A DNA stretch of 64,000 nucleotides from Escherichia phage SP27. Within the stretch, counting starts at the first letter, position 1; each line of letters starts with the position of its first letter. This document shows positions 19,693 through 52,596 of this stretch, one piece after another. The notes beneath the pieces are model-generated. The model searched no databases, was not told the origin of the DNA, and saw only the letters and a program-made list of their open reading frames with translations. A program made the position numbers and the translations under genes. The DNA is taken from the sequence record LC494302.1; one strand, 5' to 3'.

Positions 19693-19721
19693 TTGACATA
19701 GAAAAAGTAATTATGTATAAT
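19693..19721 (+). promoter_or_regulatory. sigma70-like promoter (TTGACA-17-TATAAT)
   Basis: Perfect -35 and -10 hexamers with a 17-nt spacer immediately after the upstream stop codon. Confidence 0.5.
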
Positions 19722-19722
19722 C

Positions 19723-19753
19723 AGAGAACTTCATATGGAGTTCTCTTTTTTTA
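19723..19753 (+). terminator. hairpin plus T7 tract immediately downstream of the promoter -10
   Basis: agagaact-tcatatgg-agttctct followed by TTTTTTT; either the terminator of the upstream gene or a leader attenuator. Confidence 0.5.
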
Positions 19754-19765
19754 TAAGGTGATAAA

Positions 19766-20185
19766 ATGTTAAATGAACGTATTAAAAATGCACTACATGT
19801 ATTGAACCAAGAAGTAAATTCTATTGATAAAAGTACTGACCGTTATAAAGTAATGCATGAAATCAAACAAGAATTGGAATCTATTAATAAGGGAGAATGG
19901 TGGTATCTTCAGCCCGAATATCAAACTCGTGAATTAAACGATGTTGAAAAAGAAATTGTCAAATTCATCACTACTCGTTACTGTGATACATCAGAGAATG
20001 AGGTATCAGCGAACTTCAATCTTACTAAATTGGAAGTCGAAGAAAAATTCAATTTTGATTGGCTTGATTGGATTGAAATGGTCATGGAACTAGAAGAAAA
20101 ATTCAATGTTGAAGTTGATGAAAAGTTCGAGAATAATGAAACGAAGCTGTATGAACTAGTAGAACATATTCAAAAAATGTTGTAA
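19766..20185 (+). CDS. hypothetical acidic protein (139 aa)
   Basis: ORF downstream of the promoter/hairpin; Glu-rich with coiled-coil-like composition. Confidence 0.45.
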   Translation: MLNERIKNALHVLNQEVNSIDKSTDRYKVMHEIKQELESINKGEWWYLQPEYQTRELNDVEKEIVKFITTRYCDTSENEVSANFNLTKLEVEEKFNFDWLDWIEMVMELEEKFNVEVDEKFENNETKLYELVEHIQKML

Positions 20186-21941: not shown

Positions 21942-22340
21942 ATGCTTAAAGAATTAGATTTTTCAAACTTAGAAATTATCAGTGCTGTAAAAAACATTTC
22001 CGATATGGGAGATGAGAAAGCAGTTCTTGTTACTATTACTTTTGTAAAAGAAAAAGATAGCTATAGCCATTTAACTGGTATTGAAGAACTAATTCATAAA
22101 ACCAATCTTGAGAATGATGGTAAACTCATCAAGCTTCAGGCTTCATATACGCAAAAAACGTCAAATTTTATAGACCTAAATAATGTAGTCAAGGTGGTAT
22201 ACAATCATCCTGAACACACATATAGGAACACGACAAGAAATGAAAATGTTGCTAACGATTCGAATATTATCGAAGATGTTGAATTCATAAACACAATTTT
22301 TGATCGTTGTTCTAAGGATTTAAAAAAAGTATACATGTAA
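21942..22340 (+). CDS. hypothetical protein (132 aa)
   Basis: ORF tightly coupled to the upstream gene. Confidence 0.45.
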   Translation: MLKELDFSNLEIISAVKNISDMGDEKAVLVTITFVKEKDSYSHLTGIEELIHKTNLENDGKLIKLQASYTQKTSNFIDLNNVVKVVYNHPEHTYRNTTRNENVANDSNIIEDVEFINTIFDRCSKDLKKVYM

Positions 22341-22892
22341 TGGGACATTATATGTTCCAATGATATAATGTATATAGAAAATGACAACGGACATTGAAAA
22401 ATGGACACTGAGAACCTACTTCTCTTGAAAATGTAAAGGATAGATGAGCTTTACCGTTGTAGCGAACAGCAGAAGAAACCTGTTAGAGTACTGGCATTCA
22501 AACAAACACGATGTAAGACCACGAATCACGGCGACACGGCTGTATAAAGAACTCCGATAAGCATACAGAGAGTTCCTAGATAGATGTATAAGGTTCGCAC
22601 CTTACCAGATTTGCTAAGGGAGTTCAAGGATAGCGGACGCAATTTTTACAAGAAAGTTGCGTCCAAAATTTGAGAACAAGTACTACTTTGATCGAATAGA
22701 GTTAGTACTGAGTGCTGTTGATGAAAAGACCAGCGACCGTTGCATATGACTGCGATAGAGAGAAACCGAGCAACCCGCTTTCGCTCTCTAAATTTTGGTA
22801 CAAGAAAGATCCGTCCAAAATTTGAGAAATTCGCAATTCGATAATATCCGATGCCATCATCGTCAAGAGAGACTTAATTGTCTCTTTTTTAT
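22341..22892 (+). ncRNA. candidate structured non-coding RNA region (family unknown)
   Basis: About 550 nt with no credible ORF, visibly GC-richer than flanks, several hairpins (ggacgcaa...ttgcgtcc; aaattttgg...ccaaaattt) whose loops share UACAAGAAAG, ending in a terminator. Strand inferred from the terminator. Confidence 0.3.
22866..22892 (+). terminator. rho-independent terminator
   Basis: agagac-ttaatt-gtctct hairpin followed by TTTTTTATT. Confidence 0.55.
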
Positions 22893-47505: not shown

Positions 47506-48486
47506 ATGGCTAAAAAAATTAATGAAGCACAAGTTAAAATCGATATCGCAGGTTTAGAATCTGATGATTTGGAAACTCTATCACGTATGTTAGCTCTTGC
47601 TGGTCAAGCTGAACGTCAAGACCCAGTAGTTGCCGCTCCAGTACCATCTATGGGGTCTATGACTCCATCTCTTCCACCTATTGCTCCACTAGATCTCGAT
47701 TCTATTGGTGCTGAAGAAGAAATTGGTGGAATTGAAACTTCAGTTGAAGACCCACTAGCAGCGGCAGTTGATGATCTTTCCGCTGATGTTGGTGATTTTG
47801 GTGCTGACACAGATGAAGTTAGTATGGATGCTGAATTTTCAGAACCAGGTGTAGAAGGTGAAGAAGATTTTTCTCTTGACCTTAGTGGTCAACCTCAACT
47901 AGAATCAGTTGAAGAAGACGATGAGGAAGAAGAAGAAATTATTGAAGAAGAATTCGATTTTAGTCGTATGCTATCTCTTGCTGGTATTAACGAAGAAGAA
48001 GACGAAGATTTTTCAGTAGAGGGTAATCCTGCTACCGATAAAGAAATGAAAGATACCCAATTTCTACCAGATCTAAGTATCTCTGAAGATGAAGAACCAT
48101 CTAACAGTACTGATTATGGTCCATATGATACAGAAGCTGATGCCGTTCGTGATGGTCAACTAAAGACTAATGGTGTTGAAGGTGACCATTTTGTTGTAAT
48201 TGCAAAAGGCAATCAATTTTATTGGAGACGTGTTGTAGATGAAGATCTTGACAATCGTCCAGAACCTGAGTATTATGATAATGAAGGGAACGAAAATCGT
48301 GTTCATAAATTTGAACCAAAATTCCCAGGCACTGCATTAGGAGATAACCCACTAAATGTTAATGAAAGTGAAGAAGATGATTCACCTGAAGGTAACATTG
48401 ACTTGGAAGATGATTCTGATGAAGAAGTAGAAGATATTTTTGAAAGTCTCCAAGAAAAATACAAGAAATTTTTAGGAGACAAATAA
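47506..48486 (+). CDS. highly acidic protein (326 aa)
   Basis: Asp/Glu runs (EEDDEEEEEIIEEEFDF) and a duplicated LSRMLALAG / FSRMLSLAG motif. Confidence 0.5.
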   Translation: MAKKINEAQVKIDIAGLESDDLETLSRMLALAGQAERQDPVVAAPVPSMGSMTPSLPPIAPLDLDSIGAEEEIGGIETSVEDPLAAAVDDLSADVGDFGADTDEVSMDAEFSEPGVEGEEDFSLDLSGQPQLESVEEDDEEEEEIIEEEFDFSRMLSLAGINEEEDEDFSVEGNPATDKEMKDTQFLPDLSISEDEEPSNSTDYGPYDTEADAVRDGQLKTNGVEGDHFVVIAKGNQFYWRRVVDEDLDNRPEPEYYDNEGNENRVHKFEPKFPGTALGDNPLNVNESEEDDSPEGNIDLEDDSDEEVEDIFESLQEKYKKFLGDK

Positions 48487-48487
48487 T

Positions 48488-48883
48488 ATGCAATATAATT
48501 ATCGTGAACTAGTTGAAGCGTTAGACGAAATTACCGGAAGAGATGAAGACGAAAGTTTTTCAGTTGAAGTTGAATCCGATGTTGTAGCAGTTGATGTTCT
48601 TAAGGATATTACCAAATGTCTTATTGATATTGTTGATAAGATTAAATCTGGTGAAGACCAAAAAGAAATTGTAGATAAACTACAAAAAGCCTGTGACATT
48701 TTGTCTGACATTCGATATAATGATGAAAGTACTGAAGTTGCTGATGAAGAAGTGTTGGAAGCCATTGCAGGTTGTTTTGGAACTGAAGGTATGGGACCAA
48801 CAATTGACAAAGAAGGCGTACAACACTATAATGAGCCTGGTGCACCATCATATGCTGCACGTCAAGGTTTTGTTGGAGACTAA
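48488..48883 (+). CDS. hypothetical acidic protein (131 aa)
   Basis: ATGA-coupled to the upstream gene. Confidence 0.45.
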   Translation: MQYNYRELVEALDEITGRDEDESFSVEVESDVVAVDVLKDITKCLIDIVDKIKSGEDQKEIVDKLQKACDILSDIRYNDESTEVADEEVLEAIAGCFGTEGMGPTIDKEGVQHYNEPGAPSYAARQGFVGD

Positions 48884-48886
48884 TAT

Positions 48887-49267
48887 ATGTTTCCAGAACC
48901 ATCACATAACAGTACTGAATATCAAAATAATGTACTTTCCAAAGTTAGGGAAGTACATGAATCAGATTCAGAAATAACAGACCGTATGCTTCTGATGTCA
49001 ATTTTTGAAAATTTCAGAACTGGCGGTGGTTTACGTCTTAGCAAGTTTGGGTATGGAATTTGTAAAGAAAATAATCTTTATGAATTTACAAAAATCCCCT
49101 TGCAAAGAGAATTTAAAAGTTCTATAATGTTTACATCACTTGACAGAATATGTACTTCACCTTATTATGTTGAAGGTCAGTACATATATCTGACAGATGC
49201 AATGATAATAACTGAATTAACATTGTGTTGTGACGATTTTAAACAGTTATTTTCTATTCATATGTAA
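48887..49267 (+). CDS. hypothetical protein (126 aa)
   Basis: ORF ending just before the tandem-promoter region. Confidence 0.4.
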   Translation: MFPEPSHNSTEYQNNVLSKVREVHESDSEITDRMLLMSIFENFRTGGGLRLSKFGYGICKENNLYEFTKIPLQREFKSSIMFTSLDRICTSPYYVEGQYIYLTDAMIITELTLCCDDFKQLFSIHM

Positions 49268-49291
49268 GAAAAAATGAATTAAAAATAAATG

Positions 49292-49319
49292 TTGACAAGA
49301 TAGAATGATGTGATACAAT
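49292..49319 (+). promoter_or_regulatory. sigma70-like promoter P1 (TTGACA-16-TACAAT)
   Basis: A-rich upstream tract, TTGACA at 49292 and TACAAT at 49314. Confidence 0.45.
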
Positions 49320-49386
49320 AAGCATCAGACATAAAGTTTTCAAGCGACACAAGATGTGAGTTTGAAAAAAAAAAGAAAAAAAGTGA

Positions 49387-49414
49387 TTGACAAGTTGAAA
49401 CGATGTGATATAAT
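49387..49414 (+). promoter_or_regulatory. sigma70-like promoter P2 (TTGACA-16-TATAAT with A-tract UP element)
   Basis: Consensus -35 and -10 hexamers inside repeat copy 1. Confidence 0.5.
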
Positions 49415-49480
49415 GTTCACATCAAGACAGCAAAGAGATTTACCTTTTAAACACACGGAAAAAAAAAAGAAAAAAAGTGA

Positions 49481-49508
49481 TTGACAAGTTGAAACGATGT
49501 GATATAAT
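49481..49508 (+). promoter_or_regulatory. sigma70-like promoter P3 (TTGACA-16-TATAAT with A-tract UP element)
   Basis: Identical to P2, inside repeat copy 2. Confidence 0.5.
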
Positions 49509-49572
49509 GTTCACATCAAGACAGCAAAGAGATTTACCTTTTAAACACACGGATGATTCATGAAGTAACAAA

Positions 49573-49636
49573 GGAACTGATAAGTTAAATTATTTTAACA
49601 CAGTTCCTTTACTTTTGCCCACGGATTGGCTATAAT
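49573..49636 (+). promoter_or_regulatory. leader hairpin with T-rich tail, then a weaker promoter (TTTACT-17-TATAAT)
   Basis: ggaactg ... cagttcc stem followed by TTTACTTTT; TATAAT at 49631, about 40 nt upstream of the AAA+ gene start. Confidence 0.3.
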
Positions 49637-49677
49637 AGAAACTTAAACGATTTTATCCAACAAAAGGAAATATATAC

Positions 49678-51003
49678 ATGACTACTCAAAACGATATCCT
49701 GAACGTTAAACTGACTCCAAAGAAAGCTAAAGAAGCAATGGCACTAGCTGACATGATTCAAGATAGCCTGATGATTTGGGGTAGCCCAGGTATCGGTAAG
49801 TCTGCAATCGCTCGTCAATACGCTGATGAAAATTACCCACTGCGTAAAGATAACGTAGCTAAAATCGAGTTCATGAAACAACAAATCGAAGCTGACCCTG
49901 AAAATGCTGATCAGCTACGCCGTGAACTGGCTGCATTTGAAGCAAAACTAATCGACCAAGATACTAACTTTATCGATTTCCGTTTGTCTCAAATCGAACC
50001 AAGTGACCTTCGCGGTATTCCAGTACCAGAGAAGCTTTTCCGTAAAACTGACGGTTCTCTTCTGAAAGAATCTGAGCTTGCCGAAGCAAAAGATTATGTA
50101 GCTGAAACTGCGGTAGTATGGGCTGCACCTAAAGTTCTGAAATTGTCCGAAGATTGGAAAGGTGTTATTCTGTTTGACGAAATTAACTCTGCAATGCCTA
50201 TTGTTCAGGCAGCGTCTTATCAGCTAATCCTCGACCGTTGTGTTGGTGAGATGAAGCTACCTAAGACTGCACTGATTCTTGCAGCAGGTAACCGTGAAAC
50301 TGATGGCGGTGTAACTTTCTCTCTTGCTACACCACTGCGTGACCGTATGACTCACATTGAGATGATTCCTTATCATCAAGATTGGATTAACGATTATGCG
50401 ATTGCAAAACGTTTGAACCCAGCAACTGTTGCGTTCATCAACAACACTGGTTCTAAGTACTTTAACACACTTAGTCCACAAGATCCTTCTCACAGTGGTG
50501 GTACTTCTCCACGTTCATGGGAAGCAGTAGCACGCTACGAAGATCTCAAGAAAACTAAGACAATTGATAAAGAAGTGTTCCGTGCAATGATTGCTGGTCG
50601 TGTTGGTGAAGGTGTTGCAACTGAATACATTGAGTACGTTGAGAACGTTGCTAAACTACCAGATACTATGTCTATTCTGTCTGGTGAAATCAAAGAAATC
50701 GACGCAACGCTGGATATTTCTGCGAACTACTTTATCACTCTGAACTTGGTTTATAAAATTATCGACCTGTTCAATGAGAAGCAAGAACAACGTCTACCAG
50801 TGGAAGAATGGGGTAAACTGTGTAACAACTTCATCACCTTCCTAGACCATAACTTCTCTGCAACTCAAGCAGAACTGGCAGTACTGGCAATTCGTACCAT
50901 CACGCTTCATAAGGTTGCGATTTCCATTAAAGATGTACCAGCGTTTAAAGATTTCATCGCTAAGTACTCTGAACTTGTACGTAAAGCACGCTCTCTTGGC
51001 TAA
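49678..51003 (+). CDS. MoxR-type AAA+ ATPase (AAA_5-like; CbbQ/NorQ/CobS-related)
   Basis: Walker A GSPGIGKSAIA, Walker B VILFDEINSA, MoxR-like sensor region AAGNRETDGG...LRDRM; codon usage (CTG, CGT, ATC) is distinctly higher-GC than surrounding genes. Confidence 0.75.
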   Translation: MTTQNDILNVKLTPKKAKEAMALADMIQDSLMIWGSPGIGKSAIARQYADENYPLRKDNVAKIEFMKQQIEADPENADQLRRELAAFEAKLIDQDTNFIDFRLSQIEPSDLRGIPVPEKLFRKTDGSLLKESELAEAKDYVAETAVVWAAPKVLKLSEDWKGVILFDEINSAMPIVQAASYQLILDRCVGEMKLPKTALILAAGNRETDGGVTFSLATPLRDRMTHIEMIPYHQDWINDYAIAKRLNPATVAFINNTGSKYFNTLSPQDPSHSGGTSPRSWEAVARYEDLKKTKTIDKEVFRAMIAGRVGEGVATEYIEYVENVAKLPDTMSILSGEIKEIDATLDISANYFITLNLVYKIIDLFNEKQEQRLPVEEWGKLCNNFITFLDHNFSATQAELAVLAIRTITLHKVAISIKDVPAFKDFIAKYSELVRKARSLG

Positions 51004-51077: not shown

Positions 51078-52502
51078 ATGTCAGATAACAAATCTACTTC
51101 CAGATTCAATGAAGTATCTCCGGCACTCCAGAAAGAATGTCAAGATCGTCTGGTTCTGGCTCGTACATCTTTGATGTTAACTGCACCATTCTTTGGTGTA
51201 CTCGCTTCACGTTTACGTCCAGTTCCTAATAATACATGGTGTCGTACTCTAGCAGTTGATGGTAAACATCTATTCTACAACGTAGAATTTGTAATGGGTA
51301 TTCAAGACCCATCTAAAAAGAAAGAATATGAAGAAGCTATTCGTGAAAAGCATCCTGAAGTTACAGACGAACAATTAAAAGAAATGACTGAAGGTTTGAC
51401 TGATGAAAACCTTATTGCTGTAATTTGTCATGAAATTCTACACTGTGCTTACGATCACTTCCTTCGTCGTGGTATGCGTGATCCACAACGTTATAACCGT
51501 GCAGCGGATTATGCCATTAACCAAATCATCGTTCGTGAGAAAATTGGAAAAATCCAAAGTTCATGGTTGTATGATAAAAAATATGAAGGTATGACCGCAG
51601 AAGAGATTTACATTCTTCTTGAAGAAGAAGAACAAAAAGAAGATGGTGAAGGTGAAGGTCAACCACAAAGTGGCGGCGGTGAAGGTGAAGGTAAAAATCG
51701 CGGTACTTTTGGTGATATTAAAGATGGTAAGGGTAAACCAAAAGGTACTACCATTGACCAGCATGACGTTCCACAAGAAGGTCAAGAAGGTGGTTCAAGT
51801 GAACAGCAAAAACGTGATTATATGGATGATTTCAAAACAGCAATGATGAATGCTGCACGTGCAGGTGGTACACCAGCAGAAATCGCTCGTATGATTAACA
51901 ACTTTAAAGAACCAAAGATTGACTGGCGTTCAAAACTTCAACGTACACTTCGTAGTTGGTTGAAGTCTGATGCAACGTATCAAAGTCCTTCTCGTCGTTC
52001 ATGGGGTGCTGGTTTTGGTTCTAATGGTTCATTCTATGGTAATCCAATTTACCCAGGGATGAAACCAGATGATGATATTGATATTGCGATTGCACTAGAT
52101 GCTTCTGGGTCTATTTCTGAAGATATGCTTCGTGATTTCATTAGTGAAGTTCTTGGCATCACTAAACAATTCAAACAGTTTAAGATTCGTATCATGACTT
52201 TTGATACTGAAGTTTATACTGTAAAGGATTACAAAACTGGCGAAGAACGTAAGATTCTGGAATATCCAGTAAAAGGTGGTGGTGGTACTGACTTTGAAGC
52301 AGTATGGGTTCATATGAAGAACGACAACTACAAGCCTAAACAGCTTGTAATGTTTACTGATGGTGAACCGTGGCAGTCATGGGGTGATCCAAACTACTGT
52401 AAAACACTGTTCGTGATTCACAGTAACCCAAATAAAGTTGCACCATTTGGTGAGACTGTACACTACGAATATGAAGCTGATAAAAAGCGTCAACGTAGTT
52501 AA
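51078..52502 (+). CDS. vWA-domain protein with N-terminal HExxH putative metallopeptidase domain (MoxR partner)
   Basis: HEILH (VICHEILHCAYDH) in the N-terminal half; Gly/Glu low-complexity linker; C-terminal vWA MIDAS motif DASGS (IALDASGSISEDM) followed by alternating hydrophobic strands. Confidence 0.7.
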   Translation: MSDNKSTSRFNEVSPALQKECQDRLVLARTSLMLTAPFFGVLASRLRPVPNNTWCRTLAVDGKHLFYNVEFVMGIQDPSKKKEYEEAIREKHPEVTDEQLKEMTEGLTDENLIAVICHEILHCAYDHFLRRGMRDPQRYNRAADYAINQIIVREKIGKIQSSWLYDKKYEGMTAEEIYILLEEEEQKEDGEGEGQPQSGGGEGEGKNRGTFGDIKDGKGKPKGTTIDQHDVPQEGQEGGSSEQQKRDYMDDFKTAMMNAARAGGTPAEIARMINNFKEPKIDWRSKLQRTLRSWLKSDATYQSPSRRSWGAGFGSNGSFYGNPIYPGMKPDDDIDIAIALDASGSISEDMLRDFISEVLGITKQFKQFKIRIMTFDTEVYTVKDYKTGEERKILEYPVKGGGGTDFEAVWVHMKNDNYKPKQLVMFTDGEPWQSWGDPNYCKTLFVIHSNPNKVAPFGETVHYEYEADKKRQRS

Positions 52503-52543: not shown

Positions 52544-52596
52544 ATAAGTGGGACAACTTATAAAAATATGATATAATAGTTAATGTACCAATATAC

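Follow-up and report, generated by a model that had tools for sequence, protein, structure and literature searches.

We analyzed a 64,000-nucleotide (nt) stretch of DNA from Escherichia phage SP27 (sequence record LC494302.1), here called the window, and in it the promoter array that lies upstream of a gene for an AAA+ ATPase. One promoter unit of this array, P2, is present as two perfect head-to-tail copies of 94 nt at positions 49364 to 49551. We think it probable, though well short of certain, that P2 was duplicated recently in this isolate and that the array is made up of near-consensus promoters feeding a conserved leader that bears a terminator. The array comprises the following elements.

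49270..49363, plus strand: P1 unit, the older, diverged copy; A/T-rich tract upstream, -35 TTGACA at 49292-97, 16-nt spacer with TG, -10 TACAAT at 49314-19; its leader ends in the invariant block CACAAGATGTGAG
49364..49457, plus strand: P2a, the first 94-nt unit; -35 TTGACA at 49387-92, -10 TATAAT at 49409-14, predicted start near A 49421, AAGACAG box at 49424-30, CCTTTTAAAC box at 49443-52
49453..49459, plus strand: duplication junction ACACG/GA, where the GA microhomology restores an ACACGGA (ANGGA) motif
49458..49551, plus strand: P2b, the second, identical 94-nt unit; -35 at 49481-86, -10 at 49503-08, predicted start near 49515
49608..49636, plus strand: P3, a weaker promoter; TTTACT at 49608, 17-nt spacer, TATAAT at 49631-36

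The first-pass annotation, made from the letters of the sequence, had described two perfect 94-bp copies, each with an A-tract, TTGACA, a 16-nt spacer, and TATAAT. We recovered these copies at the same positions both in a repeat search and with Tandem Repeats Finder, which reported an array at 49364-49553 (score, 380; matches, 100%; period, 94). The array length of 190 nt equals 2 x 94 + 2, and the extra 2 nt (GA) are shared at its right edge. A perfect repeat of 94 nt cannot have originated by chance. No further copies of the P1 unit, the P2 unit, or the tail were found in the window, where blastn-short gave only short, weak matches with E values of 0.004 or more. The third promoter (TTGACA-16-TACAAT), the hairpin, and the fourth, weaker promoter that had been described around the repeat are likewise present, and they are conserved within the genus. 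The repeated leader is present as well, but it is somewhat shorter than the 45 nt or so first estimated: it runs for 43 nt from the -10 element to the end of the unit and for about 37 nt when counted from the predicted start at A 49421.

The DNA belongs to the genus Asteriusvirus, whose members are jumbo coliphages of the 121Q/PBECO4/phAPEC6 type with genomes of about 350 kb. Over the 24-kb stretch around the site, identity is 99.5% with phAPEC6 and 98.9% with 121Q. Apart from a single break, which is the repeat, this comparison is colinear and shows only scattered substitutions. All 35 of 35 Asteriusvirus records matched a 1.4-kb query in two pieces, with a span 94 to 95 nt shorter than the query. 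When nine relatives were aligned, down to about 82% identity, each was found to have P1, one P2, the hairpin, and P3, and the gap in the relatives covered exactly one 94-nt unit. The A-tract is A10 in both P2 copies, A9 in 121Q, and A8 in PBECO4. The three-unit allele is present in 1 of 36 genomes, and no relative has more than two units. Since all 35 relatives have one unit fewer, the third unit is specific to this isolate. The junction pattern TTTAAAYACACGGAAAAAAA was absent from IMG/VR; it had three matches in JGI metagenomes and three in GTDB genomes, all of them unrelated chance sequence. A perfect copy with 2-nt microhomology at the junction is what slippage or illegitimate recombination yields. 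In T4, tandem amplifications form at microhomologies of 2 to 10 bp (PMC9391042). We conclude that the extra P2 unit is a recent, isolate-specific duplication, an assembly error being the less likely explanation.

A comparison of copy number with related phages had been proposed earlier, together with the idea that perfect identity implies either recent duplication or selection for promoter dosage. Our comparison, in which all 35 relatives have P1 and one P2, bears out the recent duplication. It does not establish dosage selection for the new copy: the allele is seen in a single genome, and tandem promoters can attenuate one another. Such attenuation has been reported for synthetic tandem promoters, and a third promoter can worsen it (PMC11339919).

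Two relatives differ in another respect. A 421-nt promoter-array query matched three separate places in JNE01 (OR670491.1) and three in Turkey5 (PQ471516.1), and it matched one place in the other listed Asteriusvirus records. Sequences like the promoter unit may be dispersed in the JNE01 and Turkey5 genomes.

Farther away, Vibrio phage 2.275.O._10N.286.54.E11 has a perfect 34-nt direct repeat, TTGTGTTATAACAATATGTAAGCAGTTAAGCGCA, at positions 439-472 and 574-607 of L021, 135 nt apart. This repeat (TTGTGTTATAAC...) duplicates a promoter-like element that lies ahead of the ATPase gene homologue. On visual inspection, a short inverted repeat follows each copy, and a hairpin with 23-nt arms lies between the copies. 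Promoters have been multiplied at the ATPase locus at least three times: as P1/P2 in the Asteriusvirus ancestor, as P2a/P2b here, and independently in the Vibrio phage. This recurrence hints at a recurrent benefit; neutrality is the simpler reading for the new copy.

Judged by their elements, P1 and P2 are promoters of the sigma-70 type that come close to the consensus. The hexamers of P2a and P2b match the consensus at 12/12 positions with a spacer of 16 nt, those of P1 at 11/12 with a spacer of 16 nt, and those of P3 at 10/12 with a spacer of 17 nt. A 12/12 match occurs just four times in the window, and two of these are P2a and P2b. The spacer of the P2 copies carries TG at -15/-14, and this extended -10 element is shared by P1, P2a, and P2b (TGaTATAAT or TGaTACAAT). 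A 19-nt A-rich tract precedes TTGACA in each P2 copy. The A10-G-A7 sequence adjoins the -35 hexamer and resembles the A-rich proximal subsite of an UP element, but it lacks a T-run. TTGACA together with an A-tract is found in the window only at P1, P2a, and P2b. The P1 and P2 units are 72% identical over their first 50 nt and match at 62 of 103 aligned columns overall; on this similarity, P1 is an older copy of the P2 unit.

Both -35 hexamers and the P2 -10 hexamer are invariant across Asteriusvirus, and the P1 and P2 units are otherwise 69 to 87% identical to the window. That the hexamers stay invariant while the units around them drift argues that two promoters are kept by selection. Nothing shows selection for the third unit. 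P3 is essentially invariant in Asteriusvirus. Its -35 element lies within the 3' arm and tail of the terminator described below, and its -10 element directly follows the small hairpin H2.

Other promoter-like sites were observed nearby. A perfect 12/12 site, TTGACA-17-TATAAT, lies at 48804-48832 inside the coding region of a structural gene (48488-48883). It precedes P1 by about 490 nt and has no A-tract; it could be an internal promoter or chance. The next gene (48887-49267) holds TTGCAA-17-TATAAT (49100-49138) and, directly after it, GTTTACATCA. The match of this sequence to the P2 -10 element and initial transcribed sequence, TATAATGTTCACATCA, extends over 15 of 16 nt (TATAATGTTTACATCA at 49123-38) and is of borderline significance. 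The 49100-49138 site may be what is left of a promoter unit, or it may act as a weak promoter within the gene. At the 3' end of the P1 leader (49347-49359), there is an inverted repeat, CACA-AGA-TGTG, which reads TCACA-AGA-TGTGA in most relatives and is nearly invariant in Asteriusvirus while the remaining P1 leader drifts. GATGTGA recurs just upstream of every -10 element (49307, 49353, 49402, and 49496). The inverted repeat might bind a protein, or it might be left over from a still older unit.

Between the array and the ATPase gene lies a leader with two hairpins and three GGA motifs, as follows.

49547..49553, plus strand: GGA box 1 (ACACGGA), upstream of the terminator; of 22 leaders from several genera, 21 have a GGA in the corresponding position
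49570..49617, plus strand: intrinsic-terminator hairpin; arms AAAGGAACTG (49570-79) and CAGTTCCTTT (49601-10), tail ACTTTTG
49617..49630, plus strand: small hairpin H2, GCCCA-CGGA-UUGGC; CGGA loop closed by A-U, GGA box 2
49662..49680, plus strand: Shine-Dalgarno region AAAAGGAAA (49662-70; the third GGA) and ATG of the ATPase gene

In the predicted fold, the terminator has a 10-bp outer stem and a 6-bp inner stem, GTTAAA/TTTAAC, and its tail is UUUACUUUUG when counted from a 7-bp core. The same hairpin is annotated by ARNOLD as a terminator in phage G17. We asked whether the two hairpins covary in an alignment of 22 sequences, which are related to one another. Across both hairpins, 87.8% of the cells are paired, versus 78.2% in shuffles, and the covariation score is 0.266, versus 0.104. 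None of 500 column shuffles reached the observed pairing or covariation score, and registers that were slid along the alignment were 23 to 55% paired. The terminator stem is paired in 90.9% of cells, with GC-to-AU or CG-to-AU swaps at pairs 30-66, 31-65, and 32-64; it occurs as GGAAC/GUUCC, GGCAC/GUGCC, GACAC/GUGUC, and AGCAC/GUGCU. H2 is paired in 81% of cells, and its pair 79-88 takes the forms AU, CG, UA, and UG. The GGA of the H2 loop is invariant in 22/22 sequences. RNAalifold predicts the terminator stem independently.

A covariance model of the leader, R1, found a single full two-hairpin match in the window, at 49545-49642 (80.5 bits). The other window terminators that it picked scored lower and are plain terminators with no H2 module. 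At 49552-49677, the window is 96 to 98% identical to EcMJ and ph0011, versus 86 to 94% for the flanking coding DNA. No Rfam family reached its gathering threshold anywhere in the window; the best match in 49200-49750 had 23 bits, against a threshold of 60. In the literature that we searched, we found no description of a two-hairpin, GGA-bearing leader of the ATPase operon, and it appears to be undescribed. Two other sites combine a promoter with a terminator: at 19693-19773 and 30701-30779, TTGACA-17-TATAAT and TTGACA-17-TATACT, respectively, are followed by a strong terminator hairpin beginning at about +1. The hairpin at 30706-30779 also scores on the minus strand and may be a bidirectional terminator.

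The same leader module precedes the ATPase gene in RaK2, Hallingskeid, 7t3, BF, Yen9, CBB, GAP32, Kaldavass, and uncultured relatives, the Vibrio phage excepted. It comprises, in order, an extended -10 element just after the upstream stop codon, a 5' box, the GGA box, the hairpin with its U-rich tract, the small GGA-loop hairpin, and a conserved block before the ribosome-binding site. The 5' box, (U/C)(U/A)AAGA(C/G)A, lies around position +5 of the transcript as predicted, and the GGA box is mostly A-N-GGA. A -10 element downstream of both hairpins, where P3 has its own, also occurs in Hallingskeid and, weakly, in RaK2; it is absent in the 7t3, BF, CBB, and Kaldavass groups. In BF, CBB, GAP32, and Kaldavass, read-through is the only visible route into the ATPase gene. 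With no -10 element after the hairpins there, the terminator would behave as an attenuator. Overall, the leader looks like an attenuator or a short leader RNA.

These comparisons bear on two further suggestions of the first-pass annotation. The promoters do lie upstream of the AAA+ gene, as it had stated, but a covarying terminator lies between. Thus, the promoters would head a leader or attenuator rather than simply drive the gene. As to a short RNA or a site for an RNA-binding protein in the repeated leader, the idea has some plausibility, though chiefly for sequence that lies beyond the repeated 43 nt. Just two parts of the repeat itself are conserved beyond the genus, namely, the AAGACAG box and the ACACGGA restored at the junction.

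Several other candidate elements in the leader were considered and rejected. The conserved motif is GGAU or GGAA in 22/22 sequences and never GGAG, unlike T4 RegB-type sites. Pairing of CCUUUU (49537-42) with the Shine-Dalgarno AAAAGG, which the fold of the window allows, is not supported: both boxes are invariant and so give no covariation, the flanking pairing is not kept in EcMJ, and only Asteriusvirus and RaK2 have the CCUUUU box. Pairing of the 5' AAGAsA box with the U-tract is inconsistent across genomes and is generic for A-rich versus U-rich sequence. The 42-amino-acid open reading frame (ORF) at 49356-49484 has a GTG start, has no ribosome-binding site, and crosses the A-tract; it was rejected because the A-tract differs in length between close relatives, as given above, which shifts the frame. 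Mini-ORFs near GGATGATTCATGAAGTAA are not conserved in A4 or in the 7t3 group.

The first-pass annotation had called the promoters early. A literature search for transcript mapping in Asteriusvirus found none. In CBB, a RaK2-like phage, promoters of an RpoD-like type with UP-like elements have been predicted, and these were interpreted as early (PMC5259590). The homologous promoter has the form GGGACA-17-TGTGATATAAT in the 7t3 group of Salmonella phages and TGAAACG...TGGTATAAT in BF, Yen9, CBB, GAP32, and Kaldavass; for CBB, Table S6 lists the latter class as "divergent RpoD-like." TGnTATAAT is invariant in 14 leaders from other genera. For Asteriusvirus itself, "early" is a reasonable reading of the promoter elements and should be taken no further. 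The window also has sites of a (T)GGGACA-16/17-TGATATAAT class upstream of other genes, at 22340-22369, 33440-33469, and 52550-52577, and a GGGAAA-TGCTATAAT variant near 28144 (approximately 28123-28152). These GGGACA sites, of the class that also stands ahead of the ATPase gene in the 7t3 group, may represent a phage-specific promoter class comparable to the TGAAACG class of CBB.

We propose the following course of events. Host sigma-70 polymerase could use the P1 and P2 units without phage factors, which would probably place their use early in infection. Transcripts would start near 49326, 49421, and 49515 and would reach the terminator 55 to 250 nt later. Most would stop at that point, giving short RNAs of about 100, 195, and 290 nt; a read-through fraction would go on into the ATPase-VWA operon. 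Transcripts that read through would carry the GGA-loop hairpin and the GGA-containing ribosome-binding site. P3 would start transcription downstream of both hairpins and so provide, in Asteriusvirus, an unregulated bypass into the ATPase gene. The extra unit would add a third start site, a second set of AAGACAG and CCTTTTAAAC boxes, and, because of the GA microhomology, a further ACACGGA at the junction. The resulting change in ATPase output is probably slight and might be a rise or a fall.

Several points weigh against the reading of a recent P2 duplication with near-consensus promoters ahead of a terminator-bearing leader. The three-unit allele is known from one sequence only. The spacer of P1 and P2 is 16 nt, and the optimum is 17. 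At the homologous position, other genera have promoters of phage-specific classes with no TTGACA, so that the ancestral promoter may not have been early. The U-tract of the terminator is interrupted (UUUACUUUUG), its loop is long, and a simple terminator scan did not flag the hairpin. The structure tested for covariation was derived from the same 22 sequences, which somewhat favors that structure. Promoter use, timing, and termination are inferred from sequence.

We weighed four other explanations. The third unit could have been selected because it gives more transcription of the leader or of ATPase-VWA on the host. The two promoters kept across the genus with invariant hexamers and the recurrence of promoter multiplication at this locus, including the perfect 34-nt duplicate upstream of the same gene in the Vibrio relative, are consistent with such adaptive amplification. 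A perfect 94-nt repeat would also be expected to vanish fast in a recombination-proficient phage unless it were very recent or selected. There is precedent in T4, where segmental amplifications raise expression of an anti-defense gene (PMC9391042). However, the three units are confined to 1 of 36 genomes, with no relative above two, and the conserved terminator separates the promoters from the gene. An added tandem promoter can, moreover, lower total output through polymerase collisions (PMC11339919). We regard adaptive amplification as possible but doubtful. Alternatively, the short RNA itself could be the real product: terminated leader RNAs with ANGGA would bind or titrate host CsrA or another GGA-reading protein, and the extra unit would raise the dose and add one ANGGA to each long transcript. 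The layout from promoter to terminator is kept across genera together with the 5' and GGA boxes (box 1 in 21/22), the GGA of the H2 loop is invariant while its stem covaries, and the junction restores ACACGGA. CsrA recognizes [A/C]UGGA or ANGGA in apical loops (PMC5207318), and StxS from PR' is a functional small RNA terminated just after a constitutive phage promoter (PMC7547250). Against this, the invariant GGA-loop hairpin lies downstream of the terminator and would be missing from the terminated RNAs. These would carry one GGA box, or two in the longer ones, whereas known CsrA sponges have many more. The leader matched no Rfam family, and a tblastn search with CsrA of Escherichia coli gave no homologue among the jumbo phages of Escherichia or Klebsiella, so that the partner would have to be host CsrA. 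A short regulatory RNA as the main product seems unlikely to us.

An assembly or sequencing artifact would mean that the true genome has P1 and a single P2, with the second copy introduced by assembly or polishing. The uniqueness of the allele among 36 genomes fits an artifact, as do the database searches for the junction (absent from IMG/VR, with chance matches only in metagenomes and bacterial genomes) and the identity of the copies down to the A10 homopolymer. On the other hand, the junction bears the microhomology typical of a real duplication, the 24-kb comparison is otherwise colinear, and the usual fate of a short perfect tandem repeat in assembly is to be collapsed, not expanded. An artifact is thus an explanation to which we give a low probability. 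Finally, the site could be a replication origin, with tandem promoters beside A/T-rich DNA priming replication. Promoter-primed origins are known from the T7 primary origin and T4 oriF and oriG, and strong tandem promoters beside A-tracts bear a general resemblance to them. But GC skew has no inflection near 49.3 kb and flattens only near 55 kb, where gene orientation flips, and covarying RNA hairpins with a ribosome-binding site fit an mRNA leader. We consider an origin highly improbable.

Taken alone, the duplication of P2 is a small promoter copy-number polymorphism. It offers a natural one-step variant, two units versus three, for the study of addition and interference between tandem promoters. 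The leader with its two covarying hairpins is the more interesting lead. If it is a true attenuator or protein-binding leader, it would be an entry point to gene regulation in 350-kb phages and would also inform on the role of a conserved ATPase/VWA operon. A bolder proposal, which we hold with little confidence, is that it represents an undescribed cis-regulatory leader across Asteriusvirus, Alcyoneusvirus, Eneladusvirus, Mimasvirus, and uncultured relatives. Host CsrA or another GGA-reading protein would then set the output of the MoxR-type ATPase and VWA protein, the terminated RNAs could serve as a small decoy, and promoter multiplication would tune the dose of RNA.

The genes downstream of the leader are as follows.

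49678..51003, plus strand: AAA+ ATPase gene; Pfam AAA match just above the cutoff, with the RaK2 homologue annotated as N4 gp24-like
51078..52502, plus strand: gene for a DUF2201_N metallopeptidase-like and VWA-like protein (E values of 2.7e-34 and 7e-21)

The DUF2201_N/VWA gene is probably in one operon with the ATPase gene, and a terminator-like site follows it at 52513-38. Gene order is kept across the RaK2-like group: a structural protein, a 125-amino-acid hypothetical protein, the gap, the ATPase, and the DUF2201/VWA protein. Two genes upstream, 47506-48486 encodes an extremely acidic, low-complexity protein of 326 amino acids. It contains long E/D runs and matched no Pfam family, and in 121Q the homologue carries a structural-protein annotation.

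The kinds of features described here, tandem consensus promoters, duplication at microhomology, and a terminator in a leader, are already known, and we compared the locus with the systems closest to each. The tandem strong sigma-70 early promoters of coliphages are exemplified by T7 A1/A2/A3 and the T5 early promoters. Like these and the CBB promoters, the P1 and P2 units have near-consensus hexamers and an upstream A-rich element, point in the same direction about 100 bp apart, and would presumably be used by unmodified host polymerase. Unlike the T7 and T5 promoters, they sit amid a structural, late-looking region rather than at a genome end or in an early-gene block, a conserved terminator follows them within about 55 to 150 nt, and one unit is an exact recent copy. 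The duplication resembles T4 amplification (PMC9391042) in its exact head-to-tail repeat, its very short junction homology (2 bp here), and a segment that carries a promoter. It differs in that the segment is 94 bp, noncoding, and present in two copies, whereas the T4 amplifications involve genes of about 1 kb, are roughly tenfold, and arose under known selection.

At the sequence level, the leader resembles CsrA/RsmA leaders such as glgC (PMC5207318), with ANGGA in the apical loop of a short hairpin and on the Shine-Dalgarno sequence, tens of nucleotides apart. Three GGA sites fit a CsrA-type arrangement by sequence: ACACGGA at 49547-53, the H2 loop, and AAAAGGAAA at 49662-70. In contrast to glgC, one GGA motif is upstream of the terminator, which is not a described CsrA arrangement. 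We treat the resemblance of the GGA motifs to CsrA sites as a lead only, and the GGA loop could instead be bound by another protein or make contact with RNA. The lambdoid PR'-tR' region, which gives 6S RNA and, in Stx phages, StxS (PMC7547250), offers a parallel to the whole: a strong promoter, a near-immediate intrinsic terminator, read-through to genes, and a short RNA as a by-product. Here, in contrast, no Q-like antiterminator, Q-binding element, or pause element was identified, although no search was aimed at Q homologues, and no -10-like pause element was evident by eye in the first 25 transcribed nt. Compared with PR'-tR', the genes reached by read-through have neither a late lysis nor a structural role, and this genus has a bypass promoter, P3.

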